A stretch of DNA of 64,000 bases. Source: a virus. Shown here piece by piece: positions 4,078 to 37,941 of this stretch. Numbering within the stretch: position 1 is the stretch's first letter; the number at the start of each line of letters is the position of its first letter. Under the pieces are notes generated by a model. The model ran no database searches, had not been told where the DNA came from, and saw only the letters and a program-made list of their open reading frames with translations. The stretch is taken from IMG/VR virus record IMGVR_UViG_3300028840_004184, positions 96,001 to 160,000 of that record. The stretch is one strand, 5' to 3'. The translations under genes were made by a program, and so were the position numbers.

Positions 4078-4323
4078 GTGAAACTACAAATGTACCACGA
4101 AGTTAAAATATCTCTCCAGTGGTTTTTGGATCAAGAGATCACCGGTCAGGCTGCGACGGTTAAAGATATGTTGGTGGATGAAGCGATGAAGAGAATGTCC
4201 AATGAGAATGTCCCTATTTCTGAGTATGACTTGGGCAAGCCTGTTATAATATGTAGGGATGGGTATCTTGTGATCCATTTTTATCCGCATAGGGGAGAGG
4301 ACAATGAAGTGCCCCAGGTATGA
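4078..4323 (+). CDS. Hypothetical protein
   Basis: GTG start; overlaps the start of the next gene. Confidence 0.5.
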   Translation: MKLQMYHEVKISLQWFLDQEITGQAATVKDMLVDEAMKRMSNENVPISEYDLGKPVIICRDGYLVIHFYPHRGEDNEVPQV

Positions 4324-4759
4324 TAGAGAGATGACTATGTTGCTTACGTCTTCGTCTTGCGACGTGTGTGATGCCAAGAGTGATCCGGATGGGAAGGAAA
4401 AACCATCTTCGTGTAATAGCAATATAGGGTATAAGGTCACTGATGCTGCTCTTTTTAAAACTGGGTCTGATGGAAAGGGATCTGTAAAAAGTCTTGTTCC
4501 AGGATTTCAATTCAGGACAAACTGTGTCAAACAACCATCTATTCACGACCCTTACCGTATCGAAGATTATGCTGTGGCTGCTTCTGGTAGATTTGCTGAC
4601 GTGGAAATAAAAATTCTAAGCTTTGGTTTTGATGGTTACGGGAAGAGAATAGATTCTTATTATGCTATTTATCTTCCTGTGGATTGTGACTGGAAGAAAT
4701 TTGGTGAAATGTTATCCCGTGTTCGACAGAGACGAAAGGACAAAACTAATGGCCCTTAA
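4304..4759 (+). CDS. LLTS zinc-ribbon-tag family protein 1 (degenerate first CxxC)
   Basis: MKCPRYDREMTMLLTSSSCDVCD. Confidence 0.65.
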   Translation: MKCPRYDREMTMLLTSSSCDVCDAKSDPDGKEKPSSCNSNIGYKVTDAALFKTGSDGKGSVKSLVPGFQFRTNCVKQPSIHDPYRIEDYAVAASGRFADVEIKILSFGFDGYGKRIDSYYAIYLPVDCDWKKFGEMLSRVRQRRKDKTNGP

Positions 4760-5316
4760 AGTTTGTACACAAGACGGAAGTTTCGAAATCAACGGACCCA
4801 TTTTGATTTCTTTAAAAGATGGTCACCAGGTTAGACTGTATGAATCGTCACATGGTGGTATAGCGGTATCAAATAACACTGTACATCCTGTACAAGAAGT
4901 AAAAGATGGCACCGTTGTTTTTGGTCGTAAAGATAACGATAGGGTTCGTAAAAGCCATCTTTGTGTGAAGAGATGGGACAGGGTGGCGAAGTACTAGGAG
5001 TATAGTATGTTAAAATTGGAGTATAACAACAAATGATAAACTTAATCGAAGGTAGAATTATAGAAAGGTTTGCTCACATAATCAAATGGCATACCATTAT
5101 TATGTCTGGTGCTTATAAAGATAATAAGTATTGTTTAAAGACAGCATCGGATAGTGAAAGAGCCCGGCTATCCAACGCGGTGGGGATCATGAATAACCAC
5201 GTAACCCGACTCGGCGAGATAGTAGAAAGATTACCGACGGAGTAGTCTCAAGAAGTATGTCCGGGTTGTAGTAAACTAGTAAGAGATTGCACCGGACAGT
5301 TTCCCATGTGTAATAG

Positions 5317-5544
5317 GTGATAAAAGTGCAGTTCACAGTCAGAGAGATTGTTCCCGACATGGATTACATCGCATACTGCGATAGGGTCCCAGGAATTCAA
5401 ACCAAAGGCAGAAGCGTAGCCGATGCTATTGGTAACTTTGTGATTGAAATGAATAATCGGAAAATAGGTACGGTAAAAATTGTTATTAAAGCCGCACCCA
5501 TTGGGTCGGCTTTAAGGGCTCTTAAGGATAAAAACAGTGGCTAA
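5317..5544 (+). CDS. HicB-like antitoxin-fold protein
   Basis: YIAYCDRVPGIQTKGRSVADAIGN matches the HicB YxAxxPxLPGxxTxGxTxEEAxxN pattern. Confidence 0.6.
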   Translation: MIKVQFTVREIVPDMDYIAYCDRVPGIQTKGRSVADAIGNFVIEMNNRKIGTVKIVIKAAPIGSALRALKDKNSG

Positions 5545-6487
5545 TACATGCAAAACTTTTTGTCGTCGGTTACATACTGAGGGTATGAAAACTGTTCGCA
5601 AGCATGTATCCAGTATTGATATCAAGGCGGCATGGGCATTTAAGAGTATAAGCGGTACCATGGAGTTTCATGGCCCTAATAAATTTTACTGGCATAATCA
5701 GTCTTGTTGTAAGTGGTATATGAAATATAAAGGATGGATGAAATACCTTGATTACATTGGCGTCAATATAGATGAGGAAAAACATAATGATTAAAGGATA
5801 CTGTAAAACACATTATGACATAGGAGATAATTCTATGCCGTGGCCGACTACGTTTGCTTCTGTCCCACGAAAAGGCGAATTGATAGCTAGTCCATTCAGC
5901 ATAGCATATGCGAGAGTGCTTAATGTTATGCATGCTACTGAAGATAAAGAACCAGTAATTATTGTGTTTATTGAAGTAATAGATCATATAAACTCATGAA
6001 AGGAATACTTGATATGGATAACGACATTAATCAAAGAATCGAAGACGCAAAGACAAGGGCTAAGAATCAGTTTACTAAGGTAAGAAGCCATCTTAGTGAA
6101 CTTGAGAGTTTCGTAGATAACGCCGAACCTATCGTGGAAGACCGGGTAGCGGAAGCCTGCGATATAGCCAGAGAACGGATAGATGGTGTCGAAGAAGCCA
6201 TTAATGATTTTTTCAGCGAGATTACGGAAATGAGGAACATGGAGGATTAATGCTCAATCGCCGCAGGGCTTATATTAAGGATCAATGAAATGAACTGGGG
6301 TGATTTTTTATACAACACACCTAAGGGTTTTTATTTTGTGTGGCCCTATTCTTCTCTTAAGAAGCATAAAACATTTTTTGATTATCCTTATCACAAAAGG
6401 ATACAGATAGTCTGTGATTACCTTGATGAACAAATAAGACTTGTTAATCGGTATGGCTGGGATTACGATCATAATAAACGGAGATAA
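5537..6487 (+). CDS. Four small hypothetical ORFs (5537-5794, ~5787-5999, 5996-6250 coiled-coil, 6290-6487)
   Basis: Overlapping or closely spaced co-directional ORFs. Confidence 0.55.
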
Positions 6488-6489
6488 TA

Positions 6490-7848
6490 ATGGCAACATA
6501 TGAATTAACCGTGTCAACAAATCATTATCGTGATTGGGGTGTTAAGGAAGGAGTGAGTGAACTTTTCCAAAACGCGATGGATGGAGACACAAGGGGTAAT
6601 ATTATGTCCTATAAATATATCCCCAAATCTAATACTTTAAGAGTTCATAACCAGGGGGCTTTTCTTAATATTTCTACTTTGCTTCTTGGAGAAGGAGACA
6701 AGGCGGATGACTCCAGCCAAATAGGTGGATTCGGTGTGGGTTATAAGCTGGCTGCCATAGCTCTGCTCCGTATGGGTAAAGAGTTTGTTATTTTTAATCG
6801 GTGTCATCCTGATGGTCCTCAGCAGTGGAAAGGTTTTATCAAACATTCTAAGAAATATGATAGACCTACTGTTAACTTTAGGGTCACTAATATTAATCCA
6901 AGTCGCGACCTTGATAAATTGACGTTTAAGATCAAGGGTATTACTCCAGTAGAATGGGAAGAATGCAGAAAGAGGTTTTTGAATTCTGGAACTTATGGAG
7001 ATTATACCGCCTTTGATACACCGAAGGGACAGATACTTGATGGGGAAAAAGTTAAGGGATGTATTTTTGTAGGTGTGTCTGAGGACAAAGCTATTTTTGT
7101 CCAGAAAAATGATAGACTTCATTATGGTTATAATTTTAAACCTGGTGAAATCCAACTAAACCAGGAAAGAAATATGGCCCAGAGTTGGTCATTAGAATTT
7201 GGTACCAGCAGCATATGGAATCATTTGGGTAAGGACGATAAGCATTTACTAGCTATCGAAAATATGCTTGGTCAAGATGCTCTTGATGTATGCAGACTCA
7301 ACGAAACATGGTGTGGTAGTGATGATTTGGTGAGCAAGCTATCAAATAGATTTCGTTCGAAACATGGTGATAACGCTCATCCTGTTACAGACTCAGCTAA
7401 TACTACTGCATTGGGCTTTTCAAATATAATTGGTGTTCCAACCAGCCCTCTTTATACTAAAGTCTTAGAGCGTGATATCGGCAACGTAGATGATCGTGTT
7501 AAAAATGAACAAGAGTCTGTAAGAGGAACGGTTCCTTATGCAGCCCTGGATAAAGACGAACAACATGTATTTGATACCGCGATTTCCTTGATAACAAAGG
7601 AAGTTGGCAACATAGTAGATGTCAGTATTGTGACTTTTAATGGAGATAAAACAGAAGGGTTGTTTGTGGACGGGATCATTCTGGTTGCCAGGAAGGTTTT
7701 AAAAGATATGGGCAGAGCCCTAAAAGTGCTTATCCATGAACATGCACATTCTGCTGGTTATGACGGAGAGGCTGATTTTTGCGAAGCAGAAAGATCTTTA
7801 TGGGCTAAGGTATTCGTGAGGTTATATAACAAACATGTCACGAGATAA
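6490..7848 (+). CDS. GHKL (HATPase_c) ATPase fused to a C-terminal HExxH metallopeptidase-like domain
   Basis: ELFQNAMD (N box), NQG, GEGDK, IGGFGVGYK (G boxes); LIHEHAH near the C-terminus. Confidence 0.75.
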   Translation: MATYELTVSTNHYRDWGVKEGVSELFQNAMDGDTRGNIMSYKYIPKSNTLRVHNQGAFLNISTLLLGEGDKADDSSQIGGFGVGYKLAAIALLRMGKEFVIFNRCHPDGPQQWKGFIKHSKKYDRPTVNFRVTNINPSRDLDKLTFKIKGITPVEWEECRKRFLNSGTYGDYTAFDTPKGQILDGEKVKGCIFVGVSEDKAIFVQKNDRLHYGYNFKPGEIQLNQERNMAQSWSLEFGTSSIWNHLGKDDKHLLAIENMLGQDALDVCRLNETWCGSDDLVSKLSNRFRSKHGDNAHPVTDSANTTALGFSNIIGVPTSPLYTKVLERDIGNVDDRVKNEQESVRGTVPYAALDKDEQHVFDTAISLITKEVGNIVDVSIVTFNGDKTEGLFVDGIILVARKVLKDMGRALKVLIHEHAHSAGYDGEADFCEAERSLWAKVFVRLYNKHVTR

Positions 7849-8137
7849 AGAAAGCTTAGTTTTTCTTGATGGCAAATGGTGGAGTAATAGCGTGTACTAT
7901 GCTATTAAGGAGGGATGGAGTCGTACAAGGGTCGTAAATGCCGCCATACGGGCTGGAGAAGAGGTAGACATACCTGAGACCATTAGACAAACAAAAGACG
8001 ATCCTCGGGTATATTTGGTGCTCCAAAGTGGCGAAGTGTTCAGGGGCGGATATGATAAATATGGAGAGATCAGTTTTTCAAGATTCAATCCAATAGAATA
8101 TGCCTGTATGGGTATCTTGCCCGGACTACAACTTTAG
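7835..8137 (+). CDS. Hypothetical protein
   Basis: Overlaps the upstream stop. Confidence 0.5.
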   Translation: MSRDKESLVFLDGKWWSNSVYYAIKEGWSRTRVVNAAIRAGEEVDIPETIRQTKDDPRVYLVLQSGEVFRGGYDKYGEISFSRFNPIEYACMGILPGLQL

Positions 8138-8149
8138 GATAGTATAATT

Positions 8150-8629
8150 ATGATATGTTCTAAGTGCGGATCGAAAATGAAGCTTTTATTAACTTCATCT
8201 TATTGTGATTGTGAAGATACGGCTATCGCCAAAAATAATATCAACGATAAAAAGGCGGGACGATTCAATGAAATGATTGGAGGGGTTAATTTCTTTTATG
8301 AGGATGGATCACCACCCGTTGAATATATAGGTCGTCCATTTTCAATGACATGTCGGCAACCAGACGATCATGGTCAATATACTTACAAGTGGTTTTTTAG
8401 TATAAATAGTATACGTACTATTGTGAATTTTTTATCCAGTGTTTATTATGACCATAATGATAAAGACAAAATAATAGCTGACCATATTTGTTTTGAGTGT
8501 GATAAAAAAAGAACCGGAAGCTTCGTACATATTTATCATAAGGATTATAGTGATGAGCGGTGGATGTTTACAGAAAGAGAAATTGGGCTTATCGTAGGTT
8601 TTTGGCATAAGTTTTTATCCAGTAGTTGA
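8150..8629 (+). CDS. LLTS zinc-ribbon-tag family protein 2
   Basis: MICSKCGSKMKLLLTSSYCDC; body resembles 24895-25368. Confidence 0.7.
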   Translation: MICSKCGSKMKLLLTSSYCDCEDTAIAKNNINDKKAGRFNEMIGGVNFFYEDGSPPVEYIGRPFSMTCRQPDDHGQYTYKWFFSINSIRTIVNFLSSVYYDHNDKDKIIADHICFECDKKRTGSFVHIYHKDYSDERWMFTEREIGLIVGFWHKFLSSS

Positions 8630-8718
8630 TTATAAGTCAATGTACATAGATCCTATAAGGTACATGTATTTCTATACATCCAATCATACATTTTAACGAT
8701 GTATATACATTTTTCTGC

Positions 8719-8747
8719 TTGACTTTATACATCCTTCGGAGTAGAAT
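8719..8747 (+). promoter_or_regulatory. sigma70-type promoter
   Basis: TTGACT-N17-TAGAAT. Confidence 0.75.
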
Positions 8748-8774
8748 ATAAGAAGAAAGGAACAAAGTAGTAAT

Positions 8775-9834
8775 ATGAGCGATTTAAGAAAGAAAATTAT
8801 CGATACTACGGCAAGATTAGTGTCTTTTGCCCGAGATGACTTTCCCTTACATGAACTTGAGCGGAAAGTTTTCTTAAGAGTTATAGAGCAGATCGATAAT
8901 AACTTTGTTAACATGACGACAGACATTATGCGATATGTAGAGAGGGCTATCGATGAAATTGTCCGGAGTGGCATGGACAAAATTTTTATCGTTCATAATG
9001 GCGTAACCCCTGCTACTAGGTATGTTAAGGACATACTTGGTAAGTTCAGTTTGTCATGGACATCAAGTCGAGAAGACGCTATGTTGTTTAACAGGGAGGA
9101 AGCAGGGGCGGTGTTGGCTTTGGCGGAAAGGCAGTTTAGCTGCCCCTGTTTTGTAAGGATAGATCGTCATGAATAATGAAGAAAAGACTAAAAAAAATCC
9201 ATGTGCAAATGGTTGCATATGCGGCAGTTACAATGCTGTTCGGAATTTTATAGCAAATAGTTCAGATGGTACCAAATATACGGAAGCGTTATTGAGGAGA
9301 TTGTCCAAGTTTAGCGTCAGGGATGATTTGCATGAAGGGATTGTGGAGTTTGTCAAAGCATTATCTCAGGACCTCGAAGACATATACAAAGACGCAAAAG
9401 GTCCTAAGACTTGTTGTGTTAAGGAGGTAAAGGAATCCCGTATCCCATATGCTAATAGTCATTTCATGAAGCCCTATAGTCATCCCGGCCCGGATGGGTG
9501 GGATAACCATAATGAGCGGGTAGATACTCCCGAACGTATTATTAGTCTATTAAGGAGGGTAAGACAAGACAGTCGTCATATTTCTGTTGTTAGTGATGAA
9601 GAAATTGCCTGGGCTATCGGCAAGGTAAGAGGAATGAGCGACTACAGAATACCTCCTCATCTTTACCAGATGTTAGCTGATCTTAAATATTTCATAGACC
9701 TGCCTTTACATAAGTTTTATAGGAGGCGGTGGCCGTTTACAACGGTAAAATTTGTGGTTAAAATACTGGACAATCTTTCGCGGAGGACAGGCGAGATCGT
9801 AGAATCTGCAAGAACCTATCTGCCTAAATCATAA
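8775..9834 (+). CDS. Two hypothetical ORFs (8775-9176, 9169-9834)
   Basis: Directly downstream of the promoter; overlapping. Confidence 0.6.
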
Positions 9835-9947
9835 ACAGTTATGCTCCATAAACAGATCCCGGAAGTCGGTTAAAACTATCGAAACAAAATCGAGTAATAT
9901 GTGTAAATTGGTTTTTATGTGTTGCTCGAAAAAATATATAAAGCAGC

Positions 9948-9976
9948 TTGACTTTCCCGGTGTTATGGAGTATATT
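9948..9976 (+). promoter_or_regulatory. sigma70-type promoter
   Basis: TTGACT-N17-TATATT. Confidence 0.7.
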
Positions 9977-9981
9977 AAATA

Positions 9982-10226
9982 TGAAGCGATCGCTTCAAAG
10001 ACGAGATCTAAAGCCTCACGATCAGTTTTCGTGGCTTCCTAACAACAGAAAGAAGAAAAGGGCTAACCTTGCCAAATGGGCGAGTTGAGTCATGGCCAGA
10101 CTTGGGAGATCTCAGTCTTGTTTTTCTTAGTAAGAGAACGGCGGTCAATGCCTGGTATCCAGAAGACCGACTACGTAGTAGGCATCGGCGTATCTGATTA
10201 TCTGCCTCTTGGCCGCCTATTTTTTT
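9982..10226 (+). ncRNA. Putative structured RNA or long leader
   Basis: Starts at the predicted TSS; stems 9998-10009/10107-10119 and 10140-10148/10209-10217, inner hairpins, then a U-tract. Confidence 0.45.
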
Positions 10227-10245
10227 CTTAAGGAGCCTAAAATAA

Positions 10246-24898: not shown

Positions 24899-25368
24899 CT
24901 AAGTTGTCCATTGATCATTTTTTCCCAAAACTCATGAATAACTTTTAGTTCACTCTTTGTGAATCTTATTTCAGCGGTAGAACTCGTTTTTGTAAACACG
25001 GCTCCCCATTGAGGGGCTGCTTTGCTATTTATTATACACAACCCATCTTGACTATAGTTACTATCCCAGACTGGTACCTGAATAGCATTGTTATGATCAA
25101 AAAAGAGCCATCTTTGTTTTACTATCTTTTCAATATCACTTCTACGAAAGAACCATTCTATTGTACTATTTAACACACTAACCCTGAAAAACGTATTTTC
25201 CGAACGATACGAAAAGAGAACACCATTTACATCGATGACGGTATTAGATGCGGAAGATATTTTATCATTAGAAGAACATTTTTCACAGACACAACTTGTC
25301 AGCAAGGGAATCATTTTATTTCCGCAAACTGGACATATCTTTTCACATTTAGTTCGCCTTGTTACCAC
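24895..25368 (-). CDS. LLTS zinc-ribbon-tag family protein 3
   Basis: ICPVCGNKMIPLLTSCVCEKC; GTG start at 25368 after AAGGAG. Confidence 0.7.
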   Translation of the reverse strand: MVTRRTKCEKICPVCGNKMIPLLTSCVCEKCSSNDKISSASNTVIDVNGVLFSYRSENTFFRVSVLNSTIEWFFRRSDIEKIVKQRWLFFDHNNAIQVPVWDSNYSQDGLCIINSKAAPQWGAVFTKTSSTAEIRFTKSELKVIHEFWEKMINGQLR

Positions 25369-25641: not shown

Positions 25642-26517
25642 TCAATTGGTTGTTCCATTTCCATCGAATAAAGTAAAAGGAGTTTCCTTACACTGAAAGC
25701 CAGATGCCCCCTTATGTCCGCCACCGCCGTGCTTTTTGGCGATATCCCCAACATTTACATCACCCTTCGTAGAATACATGGTCACAACCCAGTGTTTGCC
25801 ATTCTTGTTATAATAAACCATCATTGCATCATGTTTGTCGGGATCATACACAGAGTCGAACAACTTGGACCCAGGCATACAGGCGTTCGCCGCTATGAAA
25901 CGAAGGCCCTCAAATTCGAACTCATAACACAGTGGACCACACAAGAATTCGTTTTGTTTATTAACATACTTTTGAATTGTACGACCTTCACTGACAATAT
26001 CCATAACAAGCGTATAAGAAGGCAGCATTTTGTTACCATCAAACAATATATGCCACAAACGATCGTCATCTTCCGGATTCGTGTCTCGTTGCTTGATGCC
26101 ATACTGAAACGGCAGTACGTCCATGTCTTTATGATCCCAAACGTCATACCTACCCAACAGAAAGACAGAGCGAGGCATTACTTGGTTAGGGAACAGATAT
26201 TGCCACGTAAGTTCACATGCCGCGAATTTCGTATCACGTATACCGGCTATAGCAATTTCGAATGCATTGACGCCGTTTATAGCTGTTTCGTGATGATCAA
26301 TCCAAACCAAGTCACAATGATTAAACAATGTGATCATATCTTCGTGTGGCTGCAAGGAAAAATCGACCATAAAGACAATTTCGCCTTCTGTAATAGAATC
26401 CCACGGAAATTCTTCTCCGTAATCCATGCCGATCATTTCGCATTCTGGATATTTATGTTTGACAATTGCACCAGCACAGTGGCCGTCAAGGTCTGTTGAA
26501 TGATAAAAACATTTCAT
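25642..26517 (-). CDS. DHH/DHHA1 phosphoesterase
   Basis: HSTDLDG, MVDFS, WIDHHET, GGGGHKGASG. Confidence 0.92.
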   Translation of the reverse strand: MKCFYHSTDLDGHCAGAIVKHKYPECEMIGMDYGEEFPWDSITEGEIVFMVDFSLQPHEDMITLFNHCDLVWIDHHETAINGVNAFEIAIAGIRDTKFAACELTWQYLFPNQVMPRSVFLLGRYDVWDHKDMDVLPFQYGIKQRDTNPEDDDRLWHILFDGNKMLPSYTLVMDIVSEGRTIQKYVNKQNEFLCGPLCYEFEFEGLRFIAANACMPGSKLFDSVYDPDKHDAMMVYYNKNGKHWVVTMYSTKGDVNVGDIAKKHGGGGHKGASGFQCKETPFTLFDGNGTTN

Positions 26518-26536: not shown

Positions 26537-26974
26537 TTAGTTGCAGCCTCCATTTTCTAACACAATTTTTCTTATAAAATTACCTATACGTTTAACGCCA
26601 TTGTTTTTAATAACTATAGAGTCTTTAAAAAGACGAACCCCTACGTCTGGCATCACTATCTTGCTAGCAATCGTTAATTTGCCAAACAGTATGGTAAAAT
26701 ATATCTCTCCAACACGCAATTTAGATGATGAAACTTCACTTAATAAAAAATCAGCTATTCTTGTTGCTTCTTTTTTAGAAAAATATACCCCTCTGGTATT
26801 TAGCATATCACATGACAATACCAATACATAATCTTCATGATCAGAATGTGACCATCGAGCATCATCAGTTATAATAGTTTTATCTGATGAGGTTGCTTTT
26901 TTATCGCATTCTTTGGAACAGTAAAACGAAGTTAGTAACAAAAGCATGTCTGCTCCGCATACAGGGCATTTCAT
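26537..26974 (-). CDS. LLTS zinc-ribbon-tag family protein 4
   Basis: MKCPVCGADMLLLLTSFYCSKEC. Confidence 0.7.
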   Translation of the reverse strand: MKCPVCGADMLLLLTSFYCSKECDKKATSSDKTIITDDARWSHSDHEDYVLVLSCDMLNTRGVYFSKKEATRIADFLLSEVSSSKLRVGEIYFTILFGKLTIASKIVMPDVGVRLFKDSIVIKNNGVKRIGNFIRKIVLENGGCN

Positions 26975-27706
26975 TTATTTTTTCCTCAGGGAGATAAGGA
27001 AATCATAGATTTCCTTTATGTCTTGCATCGCGAATGTATAAAAACTGTTTCTTTTTTTGCGACCGAAAGCATCTGGGGCTGTATATTTTACCTCAAGACT
27101 GGCTTCGGATTTATGGTGTTTCGAGACTGGACGATAATTAAAAGAGACATTTTTATATCCACATTGGCTTAGAAGAGTCCATTTATATAACTTTTCGTTA
27201 GAAAGAATATATTCCAGGTTTTCGGCTAGTACATGTGTATGGTTTTCACCGAATTCTAAAATATCCCTTAAGTCATGTCTAGAAATAGAAAGTTGACCAT
27301 CTCCGTATCTGAAACACACTTCGTTGTGTAGTATCAGTCGTTTATAGTTATGTGTACGACATTCTTGTTGTATAACATTTTTGTTGTCCGTTGGTGATGG
27401 CTCGACCAGGACTTCACTACGGCAGCTCATTTGATGATGACAAGCCGTGCAATTTAATAGACAATAGTCAAGACTACTCCAATTATTTTGTGAGCATAAC
27501 GAATTGTTTCTGTATAGAATGTCTTCGATGGCTGCTTTACGAGTTTCGATGGACTGATTCCATAAATGTCTTGCTAATGGTTCATCAACGGCTTTTGGCC
27601 CCTTGATACCACACTCACTACAGGTATAATTATTATGAAAACCCATTTCACGATTTAAAACGGCCAACCCACCACATAAACATTTGTCAAGGAAAGTCGC
27701 ATCCAT
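26975..27706 (-). CDS. Protein with N-terminal Lar (restriction alleviation)-like Zn domain
   Basis: CLCGG...CSECGIKGP...ARHLWN. Confidence 0.5.
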   Translation of the reverse strand: MDATFLDKCLCGGLAVLNREMGFHNNYTCSECGIKGPKAVDEPLARHLWNQSIETRKAAIEDILYRNNSLCSQNNWSSLDYCLLNCTACHHQMSCRSEVLVEPSPTDNKNVIQQECRTHNYKRLILHNEVCFRYGDGQLSISRHDLRDILEFGENHTHVLAENLEYILSNEKLYKWTLLSQCGYKNVSFNYRPVSKHHKSEASLEVKYTAPDAFGRKKRNSFYTFAMQDIKEIYDFLISLRKK

Positions 27707-28228
27707 TAGAATCCATCTCCTATTTTAAAACCACGGATATAATTATCGTCGTCGCCACATGGGTTATAGTCAGGATTGGGCTCTACTGGTCCATGTATAT
27801 GTTTTTTAATATGTATAGGGAAACATGGGATGATACAAATCCATATGTCTGTTGATATATGTCGTCTATGTTTTGGTGTCGCTCCTGGATGTGTTTGTCC
27901 AGTATAGTTATATGTTTTTTTCCAGTATACACCAATCCACATATCCCGTAGATTAAATTCCCATTTTACGCTTGTATTTTTCATGATTTTCCTTAAGTGC
28001 TTTATATGCTGGGTCATTAGTGTCAGCTTTGCCTAATGCCGACAGGATGTTAAGTTTTAGTACTTCTGGTATTCCTCGCCAATAACATATGTTGCCGCAA
28101 CCATCCTGACACTTAATATATTCTTCGCCATCCTCACCCTTGGAGAAGAACAAGGCATAATGCTTGCAAAAGGGACACTTTACTTTATCACCATGATCTG
28201 GTTTTAACATTATAGAAACCTTTTCCAT
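27706..28228 (-). CDS. Two hypothetical ORFs (27706-~27984, 27953-28228)
   Basis: RDMWIGVYW...CIIPCFPI; CPFC...CQDGCG. Confidence 0.5.
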
Positions 28229-28692
28229 ATATCGTGTTCGTTGTCAAGCTTGCTTTTAGTTCGCCGACCACGGATATTGTTGATAAGTTTGAATTCATTT
28301 GTTATACGATTTATCATAAGGCTATGTTTGCCTTTCATAAAAGCTTCTGATAGACCAGGCGGATCGGGCGGACACGACATCCAATTATTTATTCTTTCTT
28401 TTGTAGAATAACATATGGTCCATTCCGAGGTATCACTATTATTTATCATACCAAGCGGGAGGCCGTCTATATTAACAGATTTGGCATGTATAATAGAATA
28501 ACATTCGCCTATGTATTCCCAGTCTGAATCTTTTAATTCTATGCCATATGGCCTTTGTTGATACTGTGTTTTGAATATATTTCTATCCACATCGGGGGTT
28601 TTTGAGGGGGTCCCCTTAATGCATCCCTTGGGGCAATATGTCGAAGTCAGCAGCATTTCTAGCTCAGAACCACATACACTACACTTTTCCAT
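28210..28692 (-). CDS. LLTS zinc-ribbon-tag family protein 5
   Basis: MEKCSVCGSELEMLLTSTYCPKGC. Confidence 0.7.
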   Translation of the reverse strand: MEKCSVCGSELEMLLTSTYCPKGCIKGTPSKTPDVDRNIFKTQYQQRPYGIELKDSDWEYIGECYSIIHAKSVNIDGLPLGMINNSDTSEWTICYSTKERINNWMSCPPDPPGLSEAFMKGKHSLMINRITNEFKLINNIRGRRTKSKLDNEHDIWKRFL

Positions 28693-29170: not shown

Positions 29171-31333
29171 TTACAAAAACTCTCCCATAATAACATCATC
29201 ATCAAAATGAGTTACTACACGAGCACCTTCTTTAAGAGGCAGGGAGTTCACGTCGTCAACGACAGTAAATATGGTGTCGGCTTCTTCGATACTGACGAGT
29301 TCGCCGCGAGCCTCTACGTGTAAATTGAATAGATCGAAGAGAGTGGGTTTTACACAGATGAAGTTAGACATAGCTTTGCCCATGGCGATCATGCCTCTCT
29401 GGTTACTCTCGACGTTGTTCCCGCTCCACGAAGGTCTTTTCTTAAGAGCAAGATCGGTCCAAATCACCTTATTATTTTTAAGGTCTATAATCATAGGAAT
29501 ACAGATGCGAGTATTGGCGGTTAGATCGATTTTGTTTTCTACCGTCTTGGGCTCGTAAATTTCTCCGGAGCCAGGTTCTTCTCTGCTCATCCAACCCATA
29601 AAACATTCAGGGACCTTACAGAATGGCTGACCGCTATATGAAAGTACCGACCATACGATGTAACGAACACCATATCGTCTAGCGGACTCGATATCTATAT
29701 CAATGAATTCGCTTGCTCCATTGGGAGCATTAGTAATATCTCCGCTATGACATGCTTTATAAGCGTTTGACCTTATGCGTGTATATGATATATGCTCCTT
29801 ATAATTCCAGTCGTCGTCGTATAGAACAGCGGACGAATCAATATCAACGCGATTACTAGCGGATATGTTTTTCCAATGGATAAAGCTGCGTAAGGTTTTC
29901 ATATTTTCCGGCATATCCACCTGTGATCCACGAGTAATGGTCCGGAATGCACCGCTTGCCGACCTCTGAGAAAATGGAACGAGGTAGCTAGCAAGCCTTT
30001 CGTCGATATGTACGTTACCTAGACTACCCCTTTCCTTAAATATTGTACATAGTGCTTTATCGCACACTGTTACTACTCTTTGACAAATATCATCATCAAT
30101 CTCGGGCAGATGATTATCCATACTAAAGGCTTTAGCTATTGTTCTTTTGGGGAAAAACACCCTTGTATTATGCTCAAGGCTATTCCTGCCGCGAAAATGA
30201 GCCATAACCTGTAGCAACACCGGGACGGAGACCTTGCTGGCTACGGCAGCAAATCGAGCAATTATATTGCCGGGCCTCGCGGTCATTCTCATTAAATGAT
30301 CGAGTCTACGGGCGAATTCTCCCGGCCTCTGCTTAAGGAGATCGGCCGCCACGCGGGTTTCCCCTTGTGACAGGGCTGTTTCGACCTTACCATTAAAAGT
30401 CTTGATTTTCCTATGATTGTTACGGAGATTCCAGAAAGCACTATAAGCCTTTTCAAAACGCCCTTTATAATCACCAGGATGTAATTTTTCACCAAGACGA
30501 ATCCATTTCATGGTGTAACGCTTCATGTCTTCTTCAAGAAGCCCACACGCATGCTCTAATAGACCAAGTAGTAGTTTTCTTTCTGAGCGATTGAAATTAC
30601 GATAATTGGTGTTGGTAGCAAGACTTATATCACCATCTGACATGGATGTTGCCAGCCTCAAAACGTCGGTAGCTGTTTTGAAATAAGGTTTTAGAAACGT
30701 TATAGCGGCATCGTCAACCTGAATATTTTCAAGAACACACTTTGAAACCAGGGCTACGTTTTCTTTAAGAGGAATGGCATCAGGCAATAGTCGTTCAAGA
30801 TCATTTTTGTAGTATTCGACGTACCACATTACGTCAGTCTTATCGGTTTCCGACAGAGAAGTTTTTGAGTTGATTAGATTTTGTCCTATCTCCACAAACT
30901 CTTTTTCTGTACCTAGACCAATACCCTTGGGCTTGTGTGTTTCTAAAGACGGAAATCTTTCTTTGACTTCATATTCTGGAATCCATTCGCCGAAAGTCAG
31001 ATAGTGAAAAATGGCATTAATGTAAAGTTCAGCTTCAACCATTTCCATTACTTGCTGGGGGAAATTGGGATACATGGGTTTGTGACGAACGTTGGCACCC
31101 ACCATCTTTTTAAGGTTTGCGGCTATGTTCACGTAAAAAGTTTTAGCCTGATCGATGGATAATGTCCTTAGGGCGTTAACTAGATCTTTTGAGAAAGTAA
31201 AACCAAGGTTTTCGATATTACGCATCATAGTTGCGATGTACTGATCGGGAAGACAGTTGCTTTTGAACATTCTACTGGTTCCAGTGGGAATAAACACCTT
31301 TAGTTTTCTTCTCAGATAAATTTCGTTTCTCAT
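29171..31333 (-). CDS. ROT/TROVE-like helical-repeat protein with C-terminal TerD domain (Prok-RING_4/SCO0854-type architecture without the RING)
   Basis: PMYPNFPQQV, KTATDVLRLA..MSDGD..L, WIRLGEKLHPG, RPGEFARRLDHL; TerD motifs RVDIDSS and HSGDITNAPNGASEFIDIDI. Confidence 0.8.
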   Translation of the reverse strand: MRNEIYLRRKLKVFIPTGTSRMFKSNCLPDQYIATMMRNIENLGFTFSKDLVNALRTLSIDQAKTFYVNIAANLKKMVGANVRHKPMYPNFPQQVMEMVEAELYINAIFHYLTFGEWIPEYEVKERFPSLETHKPKGIGLGTEKEFVEIGQNLINSKTSLSETDKTDVMWYVEYYKNDLERLLPDAIPLKENVALVSKCVLENIQVDDAAITFLKPYFKTATDVLRLATSMSDGDISLATNTNYRNFNRSERKLLLGLLEHACGLLEEDMKRYTMKWIRLGEKLHPGDYKGRFEKAYSAFWNLRNNHRKIKTFNGKVETALSQGETRVAADLLKQRPGEFARRLDHLMRMTARPGNIIARFAAVASKVSVPVLLQVMAHFRGRNSLEHNTRVFFPKRTIAKAFSMDNHLPEIDDDICQRVVTVCDKALCTIFKERGSLGNVHIDERLASYLVPFSQRSASGAFRTITRGSQVDMPENMKTLRSFIHWKNISASNRVDIDSSAVLYDDDWNYKEHISYTRIRSNAYKACHSGDITNAPNGASEFIDIDIESARRYGVRYIVWSVLSYSGQPFCKVPECFMGWMSREEPGSGEIYEPKTVENKIDLTANTRICIPMIIDLKNNKVIWTDLALKKRPSWSGNNVESNQRGMIAMGKAMSNFICVKPTLFDLFNLHVEARGELVSIEEADTIFTVVDDVNSLPLKEGARVVTHFDDDVIMGEFL

Positions 31334-31527: not shown

Positions 31528-31535
31528 TTGTTTTT

Positions 31536-31563
31536 ATTATATACAATTTTCCAAGAAAGTCAA
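31536..31563 (-). promoter_or_regulatory. sigma70 promoter driving RNA copies D and C and the TROVE-like-TerD gene
   Basis: TTGACT-N16-TATAAT; predicted TSS at about 31530, immediately before copy D. Confidence 0.8.
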
Positions 31564-31581
31564 GTAAAAAATCTAGAAATA

Positions 31582-32312
31582 TTATGAAGTAGTTACTGGT
31601 ATAATACCTCCGACCATCATTTGAGCCTTACAGGTAGTACACTTAACTTTACATGTGAATTTAAGACCTTTGGTTACATCATAGTCGCTTGGGTTTACTT
31701 TGTCATTCCACCATCCAGCAGCTTCTTCATCAGGCAGAGTTTGGCTACCGCCGTGATTACCTAGTTCTCCATCAGCGGTTCGATCATCATTGAAAATACA
31801 TGTCCAGTCGCCTTCACCGTCTTTGGCGTCAGGGTCCCATGCGAAAATTTTCCAGTAATATATCCATTTTGGATTGTCACATAGTTGGACGCAATTAAAG
31901 CTGGCCGTCCATACAAAACCCTCTCCGTATACCAGAGGATTAGGATCTAGTATCATCTCTTTTCTATTCCACGCACACATTTTAACTTGTGGGTTCGGAT
32001 TATAGTCCATAATCGTTGTTTCCTTTCTATCGACAGGATAGTTGTGCAAACAAAGTATTATGTGTTCTCTTTGCACATCTTGCCTGATTCGATCATTTTG
32101 AATATCTCACACGCCATATCTTCGGCGTCACCGATGGTAACATGGCTTGGTAAATAGGTCCATAGCAACTCATTAATGGTTTTTTTCAGTTCTGTGGTAT
32201 CTGGTTTATCGAGTGCTCTTTTAACAACGCTTCTATGTATTTTGGGACATTTACATGGTTTTGTACCACATACACAACAAGAGTGATCTCCGTCGAATCG
32301 TTTATCCATATG
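31582..32312 (-). CDS. Two hypothetical ORFs (31582-~32010, 32058-~32312)
   Basis: Co-directional ORFs; starts uncertain. Confidence 0.5.
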
Positions 32313-33591
32313 TACGCCCCTCTCTATATATTTTGAATGCATCAACTCTTCTCTGGAAGAGGGCACCGCCGAGATTAGGTCCTTCTTCGTACCCCTCTTC
32401 AATAAGTTGTTTGCCCGTAATGGTAGCCTCTATTTCAAAAGCTTTGTCGATGATATCTTCTGCATAATCTAGCCATATCAAAATATCTAAATACTGTGCT
32501 CCTTCGCGATATATAGAGTCCAAGGAGGATAGATGCATCAGGCTTTTTATGAATTTTTTATTATTCAAAATCCACCTGAGTAACTTCCCTGGACGCATTT
32601 CCTGGATGGTTTTGATACGCATATGATGTTTTGCACAGAAAACACCGAAGTTCCTAAATTCGTTAGGTATTTTGAGCCTATCACAAAAATCATTAACGGG
32701 CTTTTCGCCCATTTTGCCATGACCATGGTGAGCGGGATGTATTTCTTTGGGAGTACATCCTTTTCCAAAGTCATGCACCAAGGCTCCAAATCTCATCAAA
32801 GGTGTATCACTAAAAGTTAAAATATTCATAGTATGGTTAAATGCCGTACCATCATGTTTATCGAAAACATTTAGGGCAGCTACTTCTTTAAAGTGAACAT
32901 CTAGAACATCGATACTCTTAAGTACTTCGAAAAAACGCCTTGGGTTAGGTGTCTTCAATACCTTTTCAAATTCAATCCAAACCCGTTCCGGAGTTAAGGT
33001 CTCAAGCTGTTTCTTCATATTATGCATTAATACAAGAGTATGCATATCAATGTCAAATCCAAGCTGAGCCGCAAATCTGGCGGTTCTGTAAACACGGAGC
33101 GGATCTTCCTCGAAAGCTTCCGTGGTATGTCTCAAAATTCTGGACTCAATGTCCTTTTCACCACCAAAAGGGTCAACTACGGCAGACACATCATCCGGGA
33201 TACAACATTTTTGCATATGAATCGCTATGGCGTTCATGGTCAGATCTCGTCTGGCTAAATCATCATGAATAGTGACATCTTTGCCTGTAAAAAATGTAAA
33301 TCCTTTGTAGCCTACACCGTCTTTTTTCTCCTTACGAGCCATGGCTACTTCACATTTTTTGCCACCAATTTCTACAAGAAATACAGGAAAGTCATCACCG
33401 ACTACCTTTTCAAAGGGCATGTCTGTAATATCAATACCCGTAACAACATAGTCCTCATCATTAGAGTTTATACCTAAAAAAGAGTCGCGTACCGCTCCTC
33501 CAACCAACCAAAGATGACCACCTAGCGAATCTATGAAGTTGGCGAATTCTGTTGTGTGTTCAAAGGTTTTTGTTTTCTTTTTTTTCATCAA
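32302..33591 (-). CDS. cca: CCA-adding tRNA nucleotidyltransferase with HD domain
   Basis: VGGAVRD, DEDYVV, DLARRDLTMNAIA, EDPLRVYRTARFAA, ERVWIE, LVHDFGK. Confidence 0.95.
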   Translation of the reverse strand: MMKKKKTKTFEHTTEFANFIDSLGGHLWLVGGAVRDSFLGINSNDEDYVVTGIDITDMPFEKVVGDDFPVFLVEIGGKKCEVAMARKEKKDGVGYKGFTFFTGKDVTIHDDLARRDLTMNAIAIHMQKCCIPDDVSAVVDPFGGEKDIESRILRHTTEAFEEDPLRVYRTARFAAQLGFDIDMHTLVLMHNMKKQLETLTPERVWIEFEKVLKTPNPRRFFEVLKSIDVLDVHFKEVAALNVFDKHDGTAFNHTMNILTFSDTPLMRFGALVHDFGKGCTPKEIHPAHHGHGKMGEKPVNDFCDRLKIPNEFRNFGVFCAKHHMRIKTIQEMRPGKLLRWILNNKKFIKSLMHLSSLDSIYREGAQYLDILIWLDYAEDIIDKAFEIEATITGKQLIEEGYEEGPNLGGALFQRRVDAFKIYREGRTYG

Positions 33592-34057
33592 AGTACCCCA
33601 TACGAACGGTATTTTTTATATTCTCTTCTTGATATTGGTTGCCAGGACAACAGTGTTACTGGTATATCCTTAGTCGGGTCTTCTTCTCTTTTCTCCATGA
33701 TTCTCTTAAAGGCCATAAACCAGTCTATTGGATGCTGATTTATGACTTTACAGCTTAATTTAGGGCCACTACGATAACTTATAAAATAGTATTTCAATTT
33801 TCCTCAGCCTCCTTTTCTATAGCGTTTATAATGGCTTGACGAATATCTGTAGTGCCACCAGGTTTACTGGTTTCATGCAATCTCCATCCATGCCCAGTAG
33901 ACGAACGTCTACAAATTATTTTACCGGTATATTCTCTCATTTTACTTTGCAGCCAGTCTAGTAGCTCTGTGTCCGAATATTGAGATAGAGAATTTGTTTC
34001 TGGTATAGATATTTTTAAATTTGGTTTTGGAAGCCCATTATTCATTATGGCGTGCTC

Positions 34058-34663
34058 CTATTCTATTTCTAGTGCCTGTTTTATTGGCCATTTTAGTTGA
34101 TTAATTCTGGCTTTAACCTTGTTGTAATCTAGACAAAGACTTTCACACCATTCCTTGAGGCATTTGGTGACATTATCGATAGTAATCATTTTGCTAGTAC
34201 GCCTATTGCGTGCTTGTGTTTTACGTGTGGTCCATCGACAGTTTTTCTTGTTATAATTGCCATTATTGTTAATCCTGTCAAGTGTTAGCCCACTTGGACA
34301 CTCCCCCATGTCTGACAGAAAATTTTCAAATTTTAACCATGTTTTACAAACCGTGATACCGCGAGAACCATAGTGTTTATAAGCTCTATTATGAGGATTG
34401 TTGCAACGCTGAATCATACTGGCCCACGAGCGATATGTTGTTGTATTTTCATAACCATGTTTTATATTGGGTTTTACTTGTTTATTCCAACATCCGCAGC
34501 TTTTAGTATTACCACTACGAAGGTTATACCCAAGTACTATTGGTCGATTACCGCATTTGCACCGACACAATCAACGCAACTTACCACGACTACAATTAGT
34601 TACACGACCTAAGACGATCAGATAATGAAACTTTTGTCCGGTTAAGTCAACCAATTTACCCAT
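34058..34663 (-). pseudogene. HNH homing endonuclease with an in-frame TGA at codon 31
   Basis: ATG 34663 MGKLVDLTGQKF...KLR*LCRCKCGN; the paralogue at 42681 has W there; LTLDRINNNGNY...NCRW. Confidence 0.8.
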
Positions 34664-34718
34664 AATTATCTCTTATATTATGACATATATTCAGAAAATG
34701 TCAAGTAAATTTTATTTA

Positions 34719-35039
34719 TTATTCTACGATTTCCTTATCCCCGTTTACCCAACCCTCCTGATAATCAATATCATCAGAATCTCTCACTCGCACAGCCTTG
34801 GCCGCAACGTCTGTCCAATCCATATTGTTTTCTGCCCAATCTTCGATATCACATGAATATTGTTCAAAAAATGGCCATGTATCTTCTTCAAGCGAACGAC
34901 CTATATCGTTGTCAAATTCATGCTTGTAGTAATCCGCCCTATGTTTTGCTATTACGGAGACGGGAATATCCCATTTCGATCCGTCAGACATAGTAACTCG
35001 TAGCTTAGCTTTTCTTATGTTCATTTGGATTTGGCTCAC
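34719..35039 (-). CDS. Conserved hypothetical phage protein
   Basis: MSDGSKWDIPV..IA...DWAENNMDW.DV...DYQEGWVNG. Confidence 0.65.
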   Translation of the reverse strand: MSQIQMNIRKAKLRVTMSDGSKWDIPVSVIAKHRADYYKHEFDNDIGRSLEEDTWPFFEQYSCDIEDWAENNMDWTDVAAKAVRVRDSDDIDYQEGWVNGDKEIVE

Positions 35040-35916
35040 AATAAAACATATTTTCGTATTCTTGAAGTATTCGTTGTTCTGTTTGTTCGATTAATTTTTT
35101 TATCATATCTTTGTCTATTATTTTATTATGCTCTAAGCATGTAGTAACCCCTGGTGGTGGCCAGAAGAATTTTTCTTCGGACCAATTAATGGCTTTAAAA
35201 TCTTCTTTATCTATTTTTTCTGATTCTTTTACGGGTGTAAGGAGATCTTTTATCTCTGGTGTTAAAAAGCCTTTGTTGTCAAGTATTTGTTTGCACTCCT
35301 CGGCAAAAATAACGTGAAGCTGAGATATAAAAGAGTTAATCGATATCATGCCCTTTTGCAAAGCTTCTTTAAGAGACTCTTTTTTTCTTTCATCCCACGT
35401 TTTGTGACATGGCCACTCATGTGTCTGTTTCCAGTTTCTGCGGTCATGTAGCCGACCCCATTCCGCGATAGCTTCTTTTTCAGTTGGCATAGCTCCTGCA
35501 TGTATACCACAATTATAACACCCTACACGGACTCTGTGTTTTAAATGCATTAAATATACACTGTCTCTGCCACTACACCCCCAACACCGCTTATAGGGTT
35601 CAGGAAGTTCATATTGATGAATAGATGTTTTTGATCCAACACCCCATTTCCGATCAAGTGTAGCCTCAAGGCTGGGATTTTTTAAATGAGTGTCACCTTT
35701 CAATATTGTTTCTTTAGTTTCAGCATCTACAACTTCAAAAGACCACTTACTTATCGCATCAAAGGTTTCTTTCATTGCTTGTTGATAACCAGGCTCCTCA
35801 CAAAAACCGGGGGTTTCCAAGGGGGTGTCCACCTTGTTGCAATTGTTAGGACACACTCCCCCCGAAGTCAAAAGATCAATAAGTTCTGCCCCACATATAT
35901 CACACTTAGTATGCAT
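35005..35916 (-). CDS. LLTS zinc-ribbon-tag family protein 6, with an internal Lar-like domain
   Basis: KCDICGAELIDLLTSGGVCPNNC; CWGC...CYNCG...EKEAIAEW. Confidence 0.7.
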   Translation of the reverse strand: MHTKCDICGAELIDLLTSGGVCPNNCNKVDTPLETPGFCEEPGYQQAMKETFDAISKWSFEVVDAETKETILKGDTHLKNPSLEATLDRKWGVGSKTSIHQYELPEPYKRCWGCSGRDSVYLMHLKHRVRVGCYNCGIHAGAMPTEKEAIAEWGRLHDRRNWKQTHEWPCHKTWDERKKESLKEALQKGMISINSFISQLHVIFAEECKQILDNKGFLTPEIKDLLTPVKESEKIDKEDFKAINWSEEKFFWPPPGVTTCLEHNKIIDKDMIKKLIEQTEQRILQEYENMFYCEPNPNEHKKS

Positions 35917-36634
35917 CTTTATCTCCGAACACGAACTCTATTCTATATTGATCAAAATAGTCACTCTCCTTTTCTCTTTTTCCATAAAGGATCATTTTTT
36001 CAAAGCCACTATGTTCATCATGTGTAAGCCCCAGCATTATGGCCAAAATATCTGAGTCGGTTATTTTAACATCGCAAGTATCAAATGTACAAGTCACAAG
36101 TGTACCATTAGACATTCTATCACCAACCTCGATGGTTACGTCAAGTCGTTCGTTGGTTTTATGCATTATGGACTCAGCCTCACCTAACATAAATTGTTCC
36201 TCAAGATCATGTGTGCCATGCATATTGATAGAATCTATCGGACCAAGTTCTTCCCAGCCTTGTTCTTGTTGTAATAATTTATTCCAATGTCGTTTGGCTT
36301 TCCTAATACTAGAAAACCCCTTGGTGGCTAATTTAGTTTTACAATCACATGACACACATGTTATAGTGGAAAATGAATATACTTCCTTGTTGTCGATTTT
36401 TGTGACATGTAAATCCGGAAAAGACCCACATTCACAACGCCATAATCCTATATTCATAACATCTAGTGGGCTGCCATCATTGCGTTCTAGCTCAAAACTT
36501 GACTCACACGAAACATTGTTTTGGTCTTCGTGTACAAAATCAGCACCGCTTTGATCCTGCTGATGACAATCCGCAGGACATACCCATGATGTAATAAGTT
36601 GAATCATTTCTTCACCACACTTGGGGCATTTCAT
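35906..36634 (-). CDS. LLTS zinc-ribbon-tag family protein 7, with an internal Lar-like domain
   Basis: MKCPKCGEEMIQLITSWVCPADC; CECG...CVSC...AKRHWN. Confidence 0.7.
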   Translation of the reverse strand: MKCPKCGEEMIQLITSWVCPADCHQQDQSGADFVHEDQNNVSCESSFELERNDGSPLDVMNIGLWRCECGSFPDLHVTKIDNKEVYSFSTITCVSCDCKTKLATKGFSSIRKAKRHWNKLLQQEQGWEELGPIDSINMHGTHDLEEQFMLGEAESIMHKTNERLDVTIEVGDRMSNGTLVTCTFDTCDVKITDSDILAIMLGLTHDEHSGFEKMILYGKREKESDYFDQYRIEFVFGDKDAY

Positions 36635-37413
36635 TTACTTTGTTCCTTTATTTTATCGGCCAAAAGTTTTATTGTTGGTAAATTATAAAACCCATCATCA
36701 AAAGAGCTTAATGCTCTTTTTATTTGTTCAATGGTATATTTCTTTTTCTTTGCCTTAGGCGGCTTTCCACCACATTTATATTTCCACGCCACAGTATCAA
36801 AAATAGGCGGATATAGTATCGCAAATTCCTTAAGTAAAGGCAGCATCAAATTACGGATATCTGGATGGGCACCCTTAGAACACCGAAGATTAAACACATG
36901 GTTCCATTCACGGAAATTGGCTGACATAACAATTTCTGTTTTAAGATCATTGGGTAGTATACCCCTAGCTTGCTGTGGCGATAAACCTATCAAAACGAGT
37001 TGTAAATACCTTTCTTCATCTTGTTCTATGGCATCCATCCACAGTTTACGACATTCTTCTGAATACTCACTCCATGTACTTGGTCGTACAAATGTTAATT
37101 GATTATCAAATTTATCATTTGAATAATTACAGTATCTAGTACTTTCTTGGGAATAGGCAGCAATGCGATGCCGAACAAGTTCGTGGGTTACGCCACGGTT
37201 AGTGATAAATCGGACAGATGCATCCGAGTGCTCTATGACAGATAAATGACCACGGCCCATAATGCGACTCAAAAATTCGTCCGACTGTTCGGGCGAAACG
37301 TCCATCATATTTTCTGTTTTATAGCATGTCCTGGCCGCTCTTTCGATCCGCTTTAGTGCGATCTCCGGTTCCGGCTTCCATTCCCATCCGTAATATTGCT
37401 TTACTATTTTCAT
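36631..37413 (-). CDS. thyX: FAD-dependent thymidylate synthase
   Basis: GHLSVIEH, THELVRHRIAAYSQESTRY, ARGILP, LRCSKGAHPDIR. Confidence 0.96.
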   Translation of the reverse strand: MKIVKQYYGWEWKPEPEIALKRIERAARTCYKTENMMDVSPEQSDEFLSRIMGRGHLSVIEHSDASVRFITNRGVTHELVRHRIAAYSQESTRYCNYSNDKFDNQLTFVRPSTWSEYSEECRKLWMDAIEQDEERYLQLVLIGLSPQQARGILPNDLKTEIVMSANFREWNHVFNLRCSKGAHPDIRNLMLPLLKEFAILYPPIFDTVAWKYKCGGKPPKAKKKKYTIEQIKRALSSFDDGFYNLPTIKLLADKIKEQSK

Positions 37414-37671
37414 TCTGGGTCTTCCTGATCGGAAGGAGGAGGAACACTACCGACTTCCTGAGAAAGATGTACGTGAATAGGATCATCGATACTAATATCT
37501 ACCTTTTCATTGTGACCTAGGTCTCTGTCGGCAGGAGTTTTGAAGAAAATTTGTAGACCAGTAACCCTAGTCTTGCCCGTAATTACTCTTTTAAGACGCA
37601 AATATTCTACTATATCATTCTCGTCCAGTGTTATAACGTCTTTTTTGATTTGTACATATTCAGTTTTTACT

Positions 37672-37941
37672 TTAACTTTTTTCTTGTCTGTCATTTTCCT
37701 TTTCCTTTCCTAAAAGTTCTGTCGGTATACAAAATGCCTCTATTATTTCTTTTTCTATGCGTGTACGAATATTTATTAAATCGTCCCATTCAGGGACGAC
37801 AGCAAATTCTATAAACTCTATGGATTGAAGATTTTTGAACGTACAAGATATTGAGGAAATCATTTTATCACATTCCTTTGGGCATACCCACGAAGTCAAT
37901 AATGGAACCATTTTAGACCCGCATATCTCACATTTGTTCAT
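37672..37941 (-). CDS. LLTS zinc-ribbon-tag family protein 8
   Basis: MNKCEICGSKMVPLLTSWVCPKEC; GGAGA RBS before ATG 37941. Confidence 0.7.
   Translation of the reverse strand: MNKCEICGSKMVPLLTSWVCPKECDKMISSISCTFKNLQSIEFIEFAVVPEWDDLINIRTRIEKEIIEAFCIPTELLGKEKENDRQEKS

Follow-up and report, generated by a model that had tools for sequence, protein, structure and literature searches.

Constant N-terminal modules that precede a variable C-terminal part are found in polymorphic toxins, in type VI secretion system (T6SS) effectors (PAAR, MIX, Rhs) and in anchored phage receptor-binding proteins. The capsid-targeting sequence of the T4 internal proteins, associated with the names of Mullaney and Black, is said to be a short unfolded peptide that is cut by the prohead protease and is carried by late head-associated proteins. 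Many zinc ribbons bind nucleic acids. In Bacillus phage G, a lineage-specific zinc-ribbon expansion of ~35 copies has been described, and its authors suggested that these ribbon proteins bind DNA in a structural role or act as transcription factors (Iyer et al. 2021, PMC7824862, section 3.4.3). Here, we analyse a window of 64,000 nucleotides (positions 96,001-160,000 of the virus record IMGVR_UViG_3300028840_004184, which is complete at 170,410 bp with direct terminal repeats) in which eight open reading frames (ORFs) begin with the same ~25-residue, cysteine (Cys)-rich "LLTS" tag. Gene coordinates are those of the window unless marked genome or g.

The tag is very probably an autonomous predicted Cys4 zinc ribbon of ~25 residues, a separable N-terminal module of an unnamed and apparently phage-only family, as judged from sequence comparison and structure models. 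In this ribbon, which is of the classical type, a predicted beta-hairpin links two Cys knuckles, and the M-x2-L-[LF]-T-S core falls at the end and in the turn of that hairpin. Its fold class is known; the tag family itself is new to Pfam, PHROGs and the PDB. The overall reading, which blends this description with a mechanism in which the ribbon would act as a shared docking or self-association handle, we regard as evenly balanced.

The motif stands far above chance. A strict six-frame regular expression (regex), C-x2-C-G-x2-[ML]-x2-[LI][LI]-T-S-x(1-4)-C-x(1-4)-C, matched seven ORFs in the window, against a mean of 0.0 and a maximum of 0 in 50 shuffles of the window, while a six-frame regex for the 3' half, [LIM][LI]TS-x(1-4)-C-x(1-4)-C, recovered all eight ORFs in the window where 0.34 were expected. 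The original prediction, made from the letters of the window, was that eight ORFs open with this motif and that the first CxxC of ORF 4304 is degenerate; translation and regex confirm both (seven ORFs strictly, eight with the 3' half; C-P-R-Y-D instead of C-x2-C-G in ORF 4304). Its count of eight holds for the window and falls short for the genome, in which a regex and hidden Markov model (HMM) scan found 11 copies, eight within the window and three outside it. Ten of the 11 have all four Cys, ORF 4304 having three plus Y/D.

To define the family, the tag profile was run exhaustively with HMMER against 1.84 billion representative proteins, which gave 339 matches at E≤0.001. Among the 150 matches listed, from which positions and lengths were taken, the tag lies within the first 20-40 residues in all but one, and the median length is 120 aa; the exception, a 5,494-aa Cys-rich protein, was taken as unrelated. 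The column profile reads M-K-C-P-x-C-G-x-E-M-x-x-L-[LF]-T-S-x-[YV]-C-[PD]-x-[DE]-C-D-K. Across 151 aligned tags, three Cys columns are conserved at 100% and one at 96%, and the core is conserved too (M10 88%, L13 98%, L/F14 92%, T15 72%, S16 93%). In the 125 tags matched by regex, the first Cys is residue 3 in 82, and the core is LLTS in 46 and LFTS in 39. We considered Q-L-[LF]-T-S as a beta-clamp-binding motif and rejected it on inspection: only 27% have Gln at that position, there is no Phe at the key fifth position and a folded ribbon encloses the motif.

The tag is not a system peculiar to this genome: it stands on hundreds of other small metagenomic proteins, and it occurs once per locus in the 11 loci (36-68% GC) recovered by a metagenome scan for the YCPNDCD subtype. 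The tag-HMM search of genome and phage databases that had been proposed was run: this genome holds its 11 copies and metagenomic proteins the 339 matches. Among 50,697 deposited phage records, searched by tblastn with two tagged queries at E≤10 (short queries limit sensitivity), the only tag carrier was MW202816.1. This record is a complete 48.5-kb uncultured myovirus, whose tagged protein is a 97-aa "Zn-ribbon protein" in its replication and recombination module. A word-indexed search with the tag profile recovered this phage's own proteins, a 21.7-kb contig, on which one member recurs identically and another was called from Met10, and a single relative of 257 aa. By their neighbours, the foreign tag contexts are those of phages (TerL/portal, PolA, a baseplate-like gene, the complete myovirus). 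Of two subtype DNA patterns run against 596 Gb of bacterial and archaeal genomes, one matched once, apparently by chance, and the other not at all; scanning IMG/VR with subtype patterns or whole member sequences yielded a single true locus plus one chance match. The nearest TerL relatives of this phage (40-47% identity; contigs of 137 and 113 kb) contain no tag copy, and widening the HMM brought up none. As far as these searches reach, the family seems restricted to rare phages that have not been cultured, and nothing points to its presence in prophages.

At the foreign locus L028, TerL and portal flank the tag gene, and L025:9623-10078 (+) is the only case seen with the ribbon C-terminal, in a protein of ~150 aa. 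In L027:9228-11691 (+), a metagenomic phage contig of 64% GC, the tag ORF lies in the gap between two PolA-type ORFs matching consecutive parts of phrog_17 (positions 663-808 and 820-1232); it seems that this polymerase is divided where its exonuclease and polymerase parts meet. In the syntenic loci L020, L024, L029 and L031, the tag gene lies between a weak match to a polymerase C-terminus and an HD-phosphohydrolase-like gene. A general link of the tag with DNA polymerase genes was nevertheless rejected. The examples are L027, the L020 lineage and MW202816.1, where the tag gene is near the polymerase, and the link cannot be general because this phage's own phrog_17 matches do not adjoin tag genes and one foreign copy lies between TerL and portal.

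We then asked whether the tag belongs to a described family, extending the Pfam and PHROG searches to 148 family members. In Pfam, no window member passed threshold, and the best result across the 148 was Zn_ribbon_6, in three members, at E 2.5e-4; in PHROG, no profile covered the tag, the matches being body-specific and confined to one or two members each; PDB sequences matched at a generic KCPxCG knuckle only. DUF7567 was rejected as the family of the tag, ORF 35005 being its sole match and below threshold, and no paper on the tag family was found in the literature. The initial view that the motif is no named family is therefore borne out by the Pfam, PHROG and PDB searches, and no curated model reached threshold that would place the tag within a generic described zinc-ribbon family. 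The closest known class is that of the classical zinc ribbons (in Pfam, for instance, Zn_ribbon_6 PF07191, Zn_Ribbon_YjdM PF08274, Zn_ribbon_TFIIS PF01096 and the DUF2089 ribbon PF22747), which resemble the tag in having two Cys knuckles (CPxCG, CPxxC/CDxC) around what in the tag is a predicted beta-hairpin. The tag differs from them in its M-x2-L-[LF]-T-S core, its 12-13-residue spacing, its strict N-terminal place and its apparent phage-only range, and because of these four features we treat it as a separate family. Its structural look-alikes in the Atlas are all zinc ribbons (YjdM, TFIIS/RPB9 and the topoisomerase C-terminal repeat), although TM-scores mean little at 28 residues.

A structure model is consistent with this description. 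The AlphaFold2 (AF2) model of ORF 35906 (P0001), computed with four homologues, has a mean predicted local distance difference test score (pLDDT) of 58.6. In its tag, the 10-residue blocks reach 79 and 63, and two strands (9-12, 17-18) enclose L13-S16; residues 26-57 fall below 50, and residues 61-130, the Lar-like domain, reach 72-84. The model thus speaks for a ribbon and a body that are separate and joined by a flexible linker, and the originally proposed architecture of a constant tag, a polar linker and variable bodies holds, the linker being of low confidence in the model. A BFVD fold search with the 35906 model returned nothing at E≤0.001.

The bodies are nearly all different. When the tags were removed, BLASTP related only two pairs, 8150/24895 (E 7e-5) and 35906/g84276 (E 1e-12); the other bodies are unrelated by BLAST, and the first description of them as mostly unrelated holds. 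The body shared by 8150 and 24895, which had also been foreseen, proved to be a five-member family made up of P0008 and P0005 together with the foreign P0028, P0069 and P0079, which bear the same tag. ORF 26537 had been thought to share this body weakly; it is not detectable as a member (body HMM E 1.2). The bodies of 145 of the matches fall into 126 BLAST components, with a median body of 94 aa and a 10th percentile of 37 aa. Recognisable bodies are few: a putative Pol-beta-type nucleotidyltransferase (NTase), the Lar-like second Zn domain and DUF2158. The body of g73766 (P0012) has a weak nucleotidyltransferase match (phrog_1614, E 2.3e-4) and no Pfam match, while its tagged foreign relative P0063 matches the same profile at E 2.5e-13. 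All other bodies of this phage's tagged proteins are ORFans in Pfam and PHROGs. Neither this phage nor its relatives yielded a paralogue of any body that lacks the tag, and word-indexed homologue searches of the bodies recovered only the same small family.

The Lar-like domain (W-x-C-x-C-G ... C-x(2-4)-C ... A-x3-W-N-x-L-L) is present, as had been noticed, but in three proteins (35005, 35906 and g84276) rather than two. An Atlas Lar cluster aligns with residues 62-127 of ORF 35906 with a TM of 0.68 on the Lar side. This likeness to Lar concerns the body and not the tag, and the Pfam model Lar_restr_allev (PF14354) does not match the tagged proteins, its threshold not being reached by the second Zn domain of any of the three. 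The sole match to the Lar model in the genome is an untagged 91-aa ORF at 27953-28228 (-), which scores 19.2 bits, below the 28.6 cut-off, and overlaps the end of the tagged gene 28210-28692.

Gene by gene, ORF 4304 (4304..4759, +; 151 aa) has LLTS-x3-C-x2-C at 4340-4369, a tag HMM score of 51.5 bits and an ORFan body. P0008 (8150..8629, +; 159 aa; tag 8156-8212) and P0005 (24895..25368, -; 157 aa; tag 25276-25335) have the 8150-family body, which for P0008 is found tagged in other phages too. P0005 has a GTG start, most likely the one at 25368, which has AAGGAG six bases upstream and leaves a 9-residue lead ahead of the tag. ORFan bodies follow the tag in the 145-aa product of 26537..26974 (-; tag 26906-26968) and in P0004 (28210..28692, -; 160 aa; tag 28621-28683), the latter without Pfam or PHROG match. 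P0007 (35005..35916, -; 303 aa; tag 35839-35904) continues with the linker NKVDTPLETPG, a Lar-like Zn domain (HMM 88 bits) and a C-terminal region, and P0001 (35906..36634, -; 242 aa; tag 36566-36628) with a disordered linker, a Lar-like Zn domain and a C-terminal domain. P0003 (37672..37941, -; 89 aa; tag 37870-37932) has a short tail, and a protein identical to it is on record from a 21.7-kb contig. The copies outside the window are a 259-aa protein (genome 84276-85055, +) and one of ~124 aa from a TTG start (genome 74940-75320, -), and the divergent 323-aa P0012 (genome 73766-74737, -), in which LLVN replaces LLTS. The last two form a pair of tagged genes ~200 bp apart on the same strand (genome 73766-75320, -), ~21-22 kb ahead of the window start (L019, L002).

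Gene callers have chosen the internal Met10 as the start in three members: 26537-26974 (-), genome 74940-75320 (-) and P0011. Such starts (MIQLLTS..., MLLLLTS...) remove the first zinc knuckle, and the Met in question is 88% conserved family-wide. For the protein at genome 74940-75320, the apparent start is TTG, whereas the database call begins at the internal Met10.

How did one genome come to hold 11 copies? Leu, Ser, Thr and Cys codons vary freely among the tag copies, and because synonymous codons are scrambled in this way the conservation of the tag reflects selection at the protein level; the same scrambling rules out a recent DNA duplication or recombination cassette. Tags of this phage are on average 43% identical to each other and 44% identical to foreign tags, which among themselves average 47%. 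A recent in-genome burst can thus be dismissed, and the original statement that no tandem duplication had taken place is upheld by both the codons and the identities. Several own members have as their best tag match a foreign protein with the same body, as in the NTase pair P0012/P0063 (74%), and tag-plus-body orthologues across phages exist for the NTase pair, the 8150 family and the Lar-type family. Since own copies diverge as much from each other as from foreign ones and several find their best match abroad, the 11 copies are best seen as an accumulation of old, individually conserved tag-plus-body genes. The one sign of newer exchange is the pair g84276 and 35005, which have 68% tag identity and a common NKVDTPL linker.

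The next question was what the tag might bind. BLAST comparison of this phage with other tag-bearing genomes, including 40 kb of the complete myovirus, found no common proteins but the tags, with one clear exception: the 160-aa ORF 45414-45896 (-) is 31% identical (E 2e-24) to L022:8396-8938 (+), which lies ~650 bp downstream of the L022 tag gene. This ORF is no partner candidate because it is also present in tag-less relatives. Because the BLAST comparison brought up no further shared protein, a receptor encoded by the phages and conserved along with the tag is unlikely, which leaves as targets something that distant bacteria have in common, the tag itself or, if the ribbon is a folding cap, nothing.

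In the mechanism that we propose, one conserved face would be made up of the hairpin's Thr-Ser together with five conserved hydrophobic positions. A 25-residue domain being too small to bury such a face, it could serve as a shared binding handle that tethers every variable body to the same target, which might be a hub protein or nucleic acid of the host that distant bacteria have in common or, through self-association, the tag itself. Taken broadly, a binding handle has an even chance at best and perhaps slightly less. The narrower version, docking on a host component, is possible but doubtful; we propose with the same reserve that the LLTS ribbon may recruit changing small effectors to one host hub (for example RNA polymerase, ribosome, replisome or protease) or into tag-tag assemblies. 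Self-association, in which the ribbons would di- or oligomerise via the hydrophobic hairpin face, as homodimers in single-copy phages and possibly as mixed assemblies among the 11 tagged proteins here, needs no separate partner and so fits the absent co-conserved gene and hosts of very different GC. Five conserved hydrophobic positions on 25 residues suit it as well, and an N-terminal position with a flexible linker, as found here, is typical of oligomerisation handles. The tags of this phage, however, diverge from each other as much as from foreign tags, which could weaken hetero-association, and we consider self-association unlikely.

Several observations weigh against a shared handle. All conserved non-Cys residues can be explained by folding (knuckle Pro/Gly, a hydrophobic mini-core and the turn Thr-Ser), and the tag is near-neutral (mean net charge +0.3), which does not help the case for nucleic-acid binding. 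Short tails make up many of the bodies, as the 10th percentile given above illustrates, and because of this the ribbon itself may be the working part and not an address. Most foreign matches are on short contigs, which makes copy number per genome elsewhere poorly known. Finally, the tag model is of moderate confidence, and that of a second fold, the 8150 family, has a pLDDT of 43.

Some of these points would be expected of a folding nucleus, a cheap, zinc-stabilised cap with no common partner, thanks to which short and fast-evolving proteins would fold and withstand proteolysis. Every conserved position fits a structural role in a zinc ribbon, no partner gene co-occurs, many bodies are too short to fold on their own, and the look-alikes in the Atlas are generic. 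Against such a cap, Met10, Leu13 and Ser16 are 88-98% conserved across phages (DNA of 36-68% GC) that otherwise share nothing, whereas generic zinc-ribbon families usually conserve little besides the Cys; moreover, since a flexible linker separates tag and body, the tag is unlikely to stabilise the body directly. We rate a pure folding role as rather unlikely.

The position of the genes bears on two further explanations. All 11 tagged genes lie within genome 73.7-134 kb, whereas ~0-70 kb is taken up by tail, baseplate and fibre-sized ORFs, and 149-170 kb by TerL, portal and the other large plus-strand ORFs. The window genes stand in tight same-strand runs with overlapping stops and starts, next to genes for ThyX (36631-37413), a CCA-adding enzyme (32302-33591), TROVE-TerD (29171-31333) and a DHH phosphoesterase (25642-26517). 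Gene 35906 overlaps the ThyX gene by 4 nt, and gene 26537 abuts a 243-aa ORF (26975-27706) and adjoins the DHH phosphoesterase gene. Several tagged genes are thus translationally coupled to ThyX and other nucleotide/RNA enzymes, which argues against virion partners and points to non-virion proteins of early or middle expression, the timing being read from gene position alone. Elsewhere in the window, a 769-aa ORF (46301-48610, -) has an RtcB RNA ligase in its C-terminal half (phrog_1075, E 8e-111) and weak PhoH-like and ThyX-like matches in its N-terminal half; it may be a fusion or an extended RtcB.

The leading idea of the original prediction was a capsid- or virion-targeting signal like the T4 internal-protein sequence, and a constant, strictly N-terminal element on variable cargo, together with the one foreign copy between TerL and portal, is what such a signal could look like. 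But all 11 genes are outside the structural blocks and coupled to metabolic genes, no head protein co-occurs with the tag, and a folded zinc domain is unlike a short cleaved peptide. Nor did we find a conserved prohead-protease site after the tag: the columns after the last Cys are D, then K/P/R, then variable sequence, with no L/I-x-E. Gene position and the missing cleavage site make capsid targeting very improbable. The partners then suggested (capsid, portal, protease or TROVE-TerD) are not supported, given the non-structural region, the absence of a cleavage site and the lack of any co-occurring protein.

The same neighbourhood could instead favour a nucleic-acid-binding ribbon, that is, specific transcription factors or DNA/RNA-directed effectors as proposed for phage G. 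The genes lie near ThyX, the CCA-adding enzyme and DHH here, between PolA ORFs in L027 and in a replication module in MW202816.1, and one body type is a putative nucleotidyltransferase. Yet early or middle genes in general would show such a context, the tag lacks a basic character (net charge ~0), and one foreign copy lies between TerL and portal. The tblastn search with two tagged queries gave no match in phage G, within the limited sensitivity of short queries, so that membership of the phage G family is not shown. Nucleic-acid binding is, in our view, improbable. Something else altogether accounts for what remains of our expectation.

What the tag means depends on which of these explanations holds. 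In any case, it is a new, sharply conserved module, present only in uncultured phages as far as searched, on more than 100 unrelated mini-proteins, and it can correct gene calls, three recorded members having been begun at the internal Met10 and not at the true start. If it is a docking or self-association handle, it would offer one experimental entry to a whole class of phage ORFans with a shared target, as well as a compact, 25-residue, zinc-dependent tethering tag. If it docks on one host hub, this phage would hold an 11-member effector toolkit working via a single docking site, an undescribed way of organising host takeover. If it is a folding cap only, it would explain the stability of very short, fast-evolving phage proteins.

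Together, these results set the tag apart from the systems with which we began. It resembles the T4 capsid-targeting sequence in being a constant N-terminal element on otherwise unrelated phage proteins; it differs in being a predicted folded Cys4 domain, in belonging to non-structural genes and in having no conserved cleavage site. With polymorphic toxins, T6SS effectors and receptor-binding proteins it shares a plan in which many exchangeable C-terminal parts follow a single conserved N-terminal handle. In those systems, however, the receptor of the handle is known and co-encoded, whereas no partner co-occurs here, and the bodies behind the tag are tiny ORFans in which neither a toxin nor a receptor binder can be recognised. 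Among published systems, the phage G expansion comes closest; it likewise consists of many small zinc-ribbon proteins in a large phage. In phage G it is the whole small protein that is repeated, whereas here only the 25-residue N-terminal module is constant and the bodies are unrelated; the copies are dispersed and old, and each is conserved in other phages.

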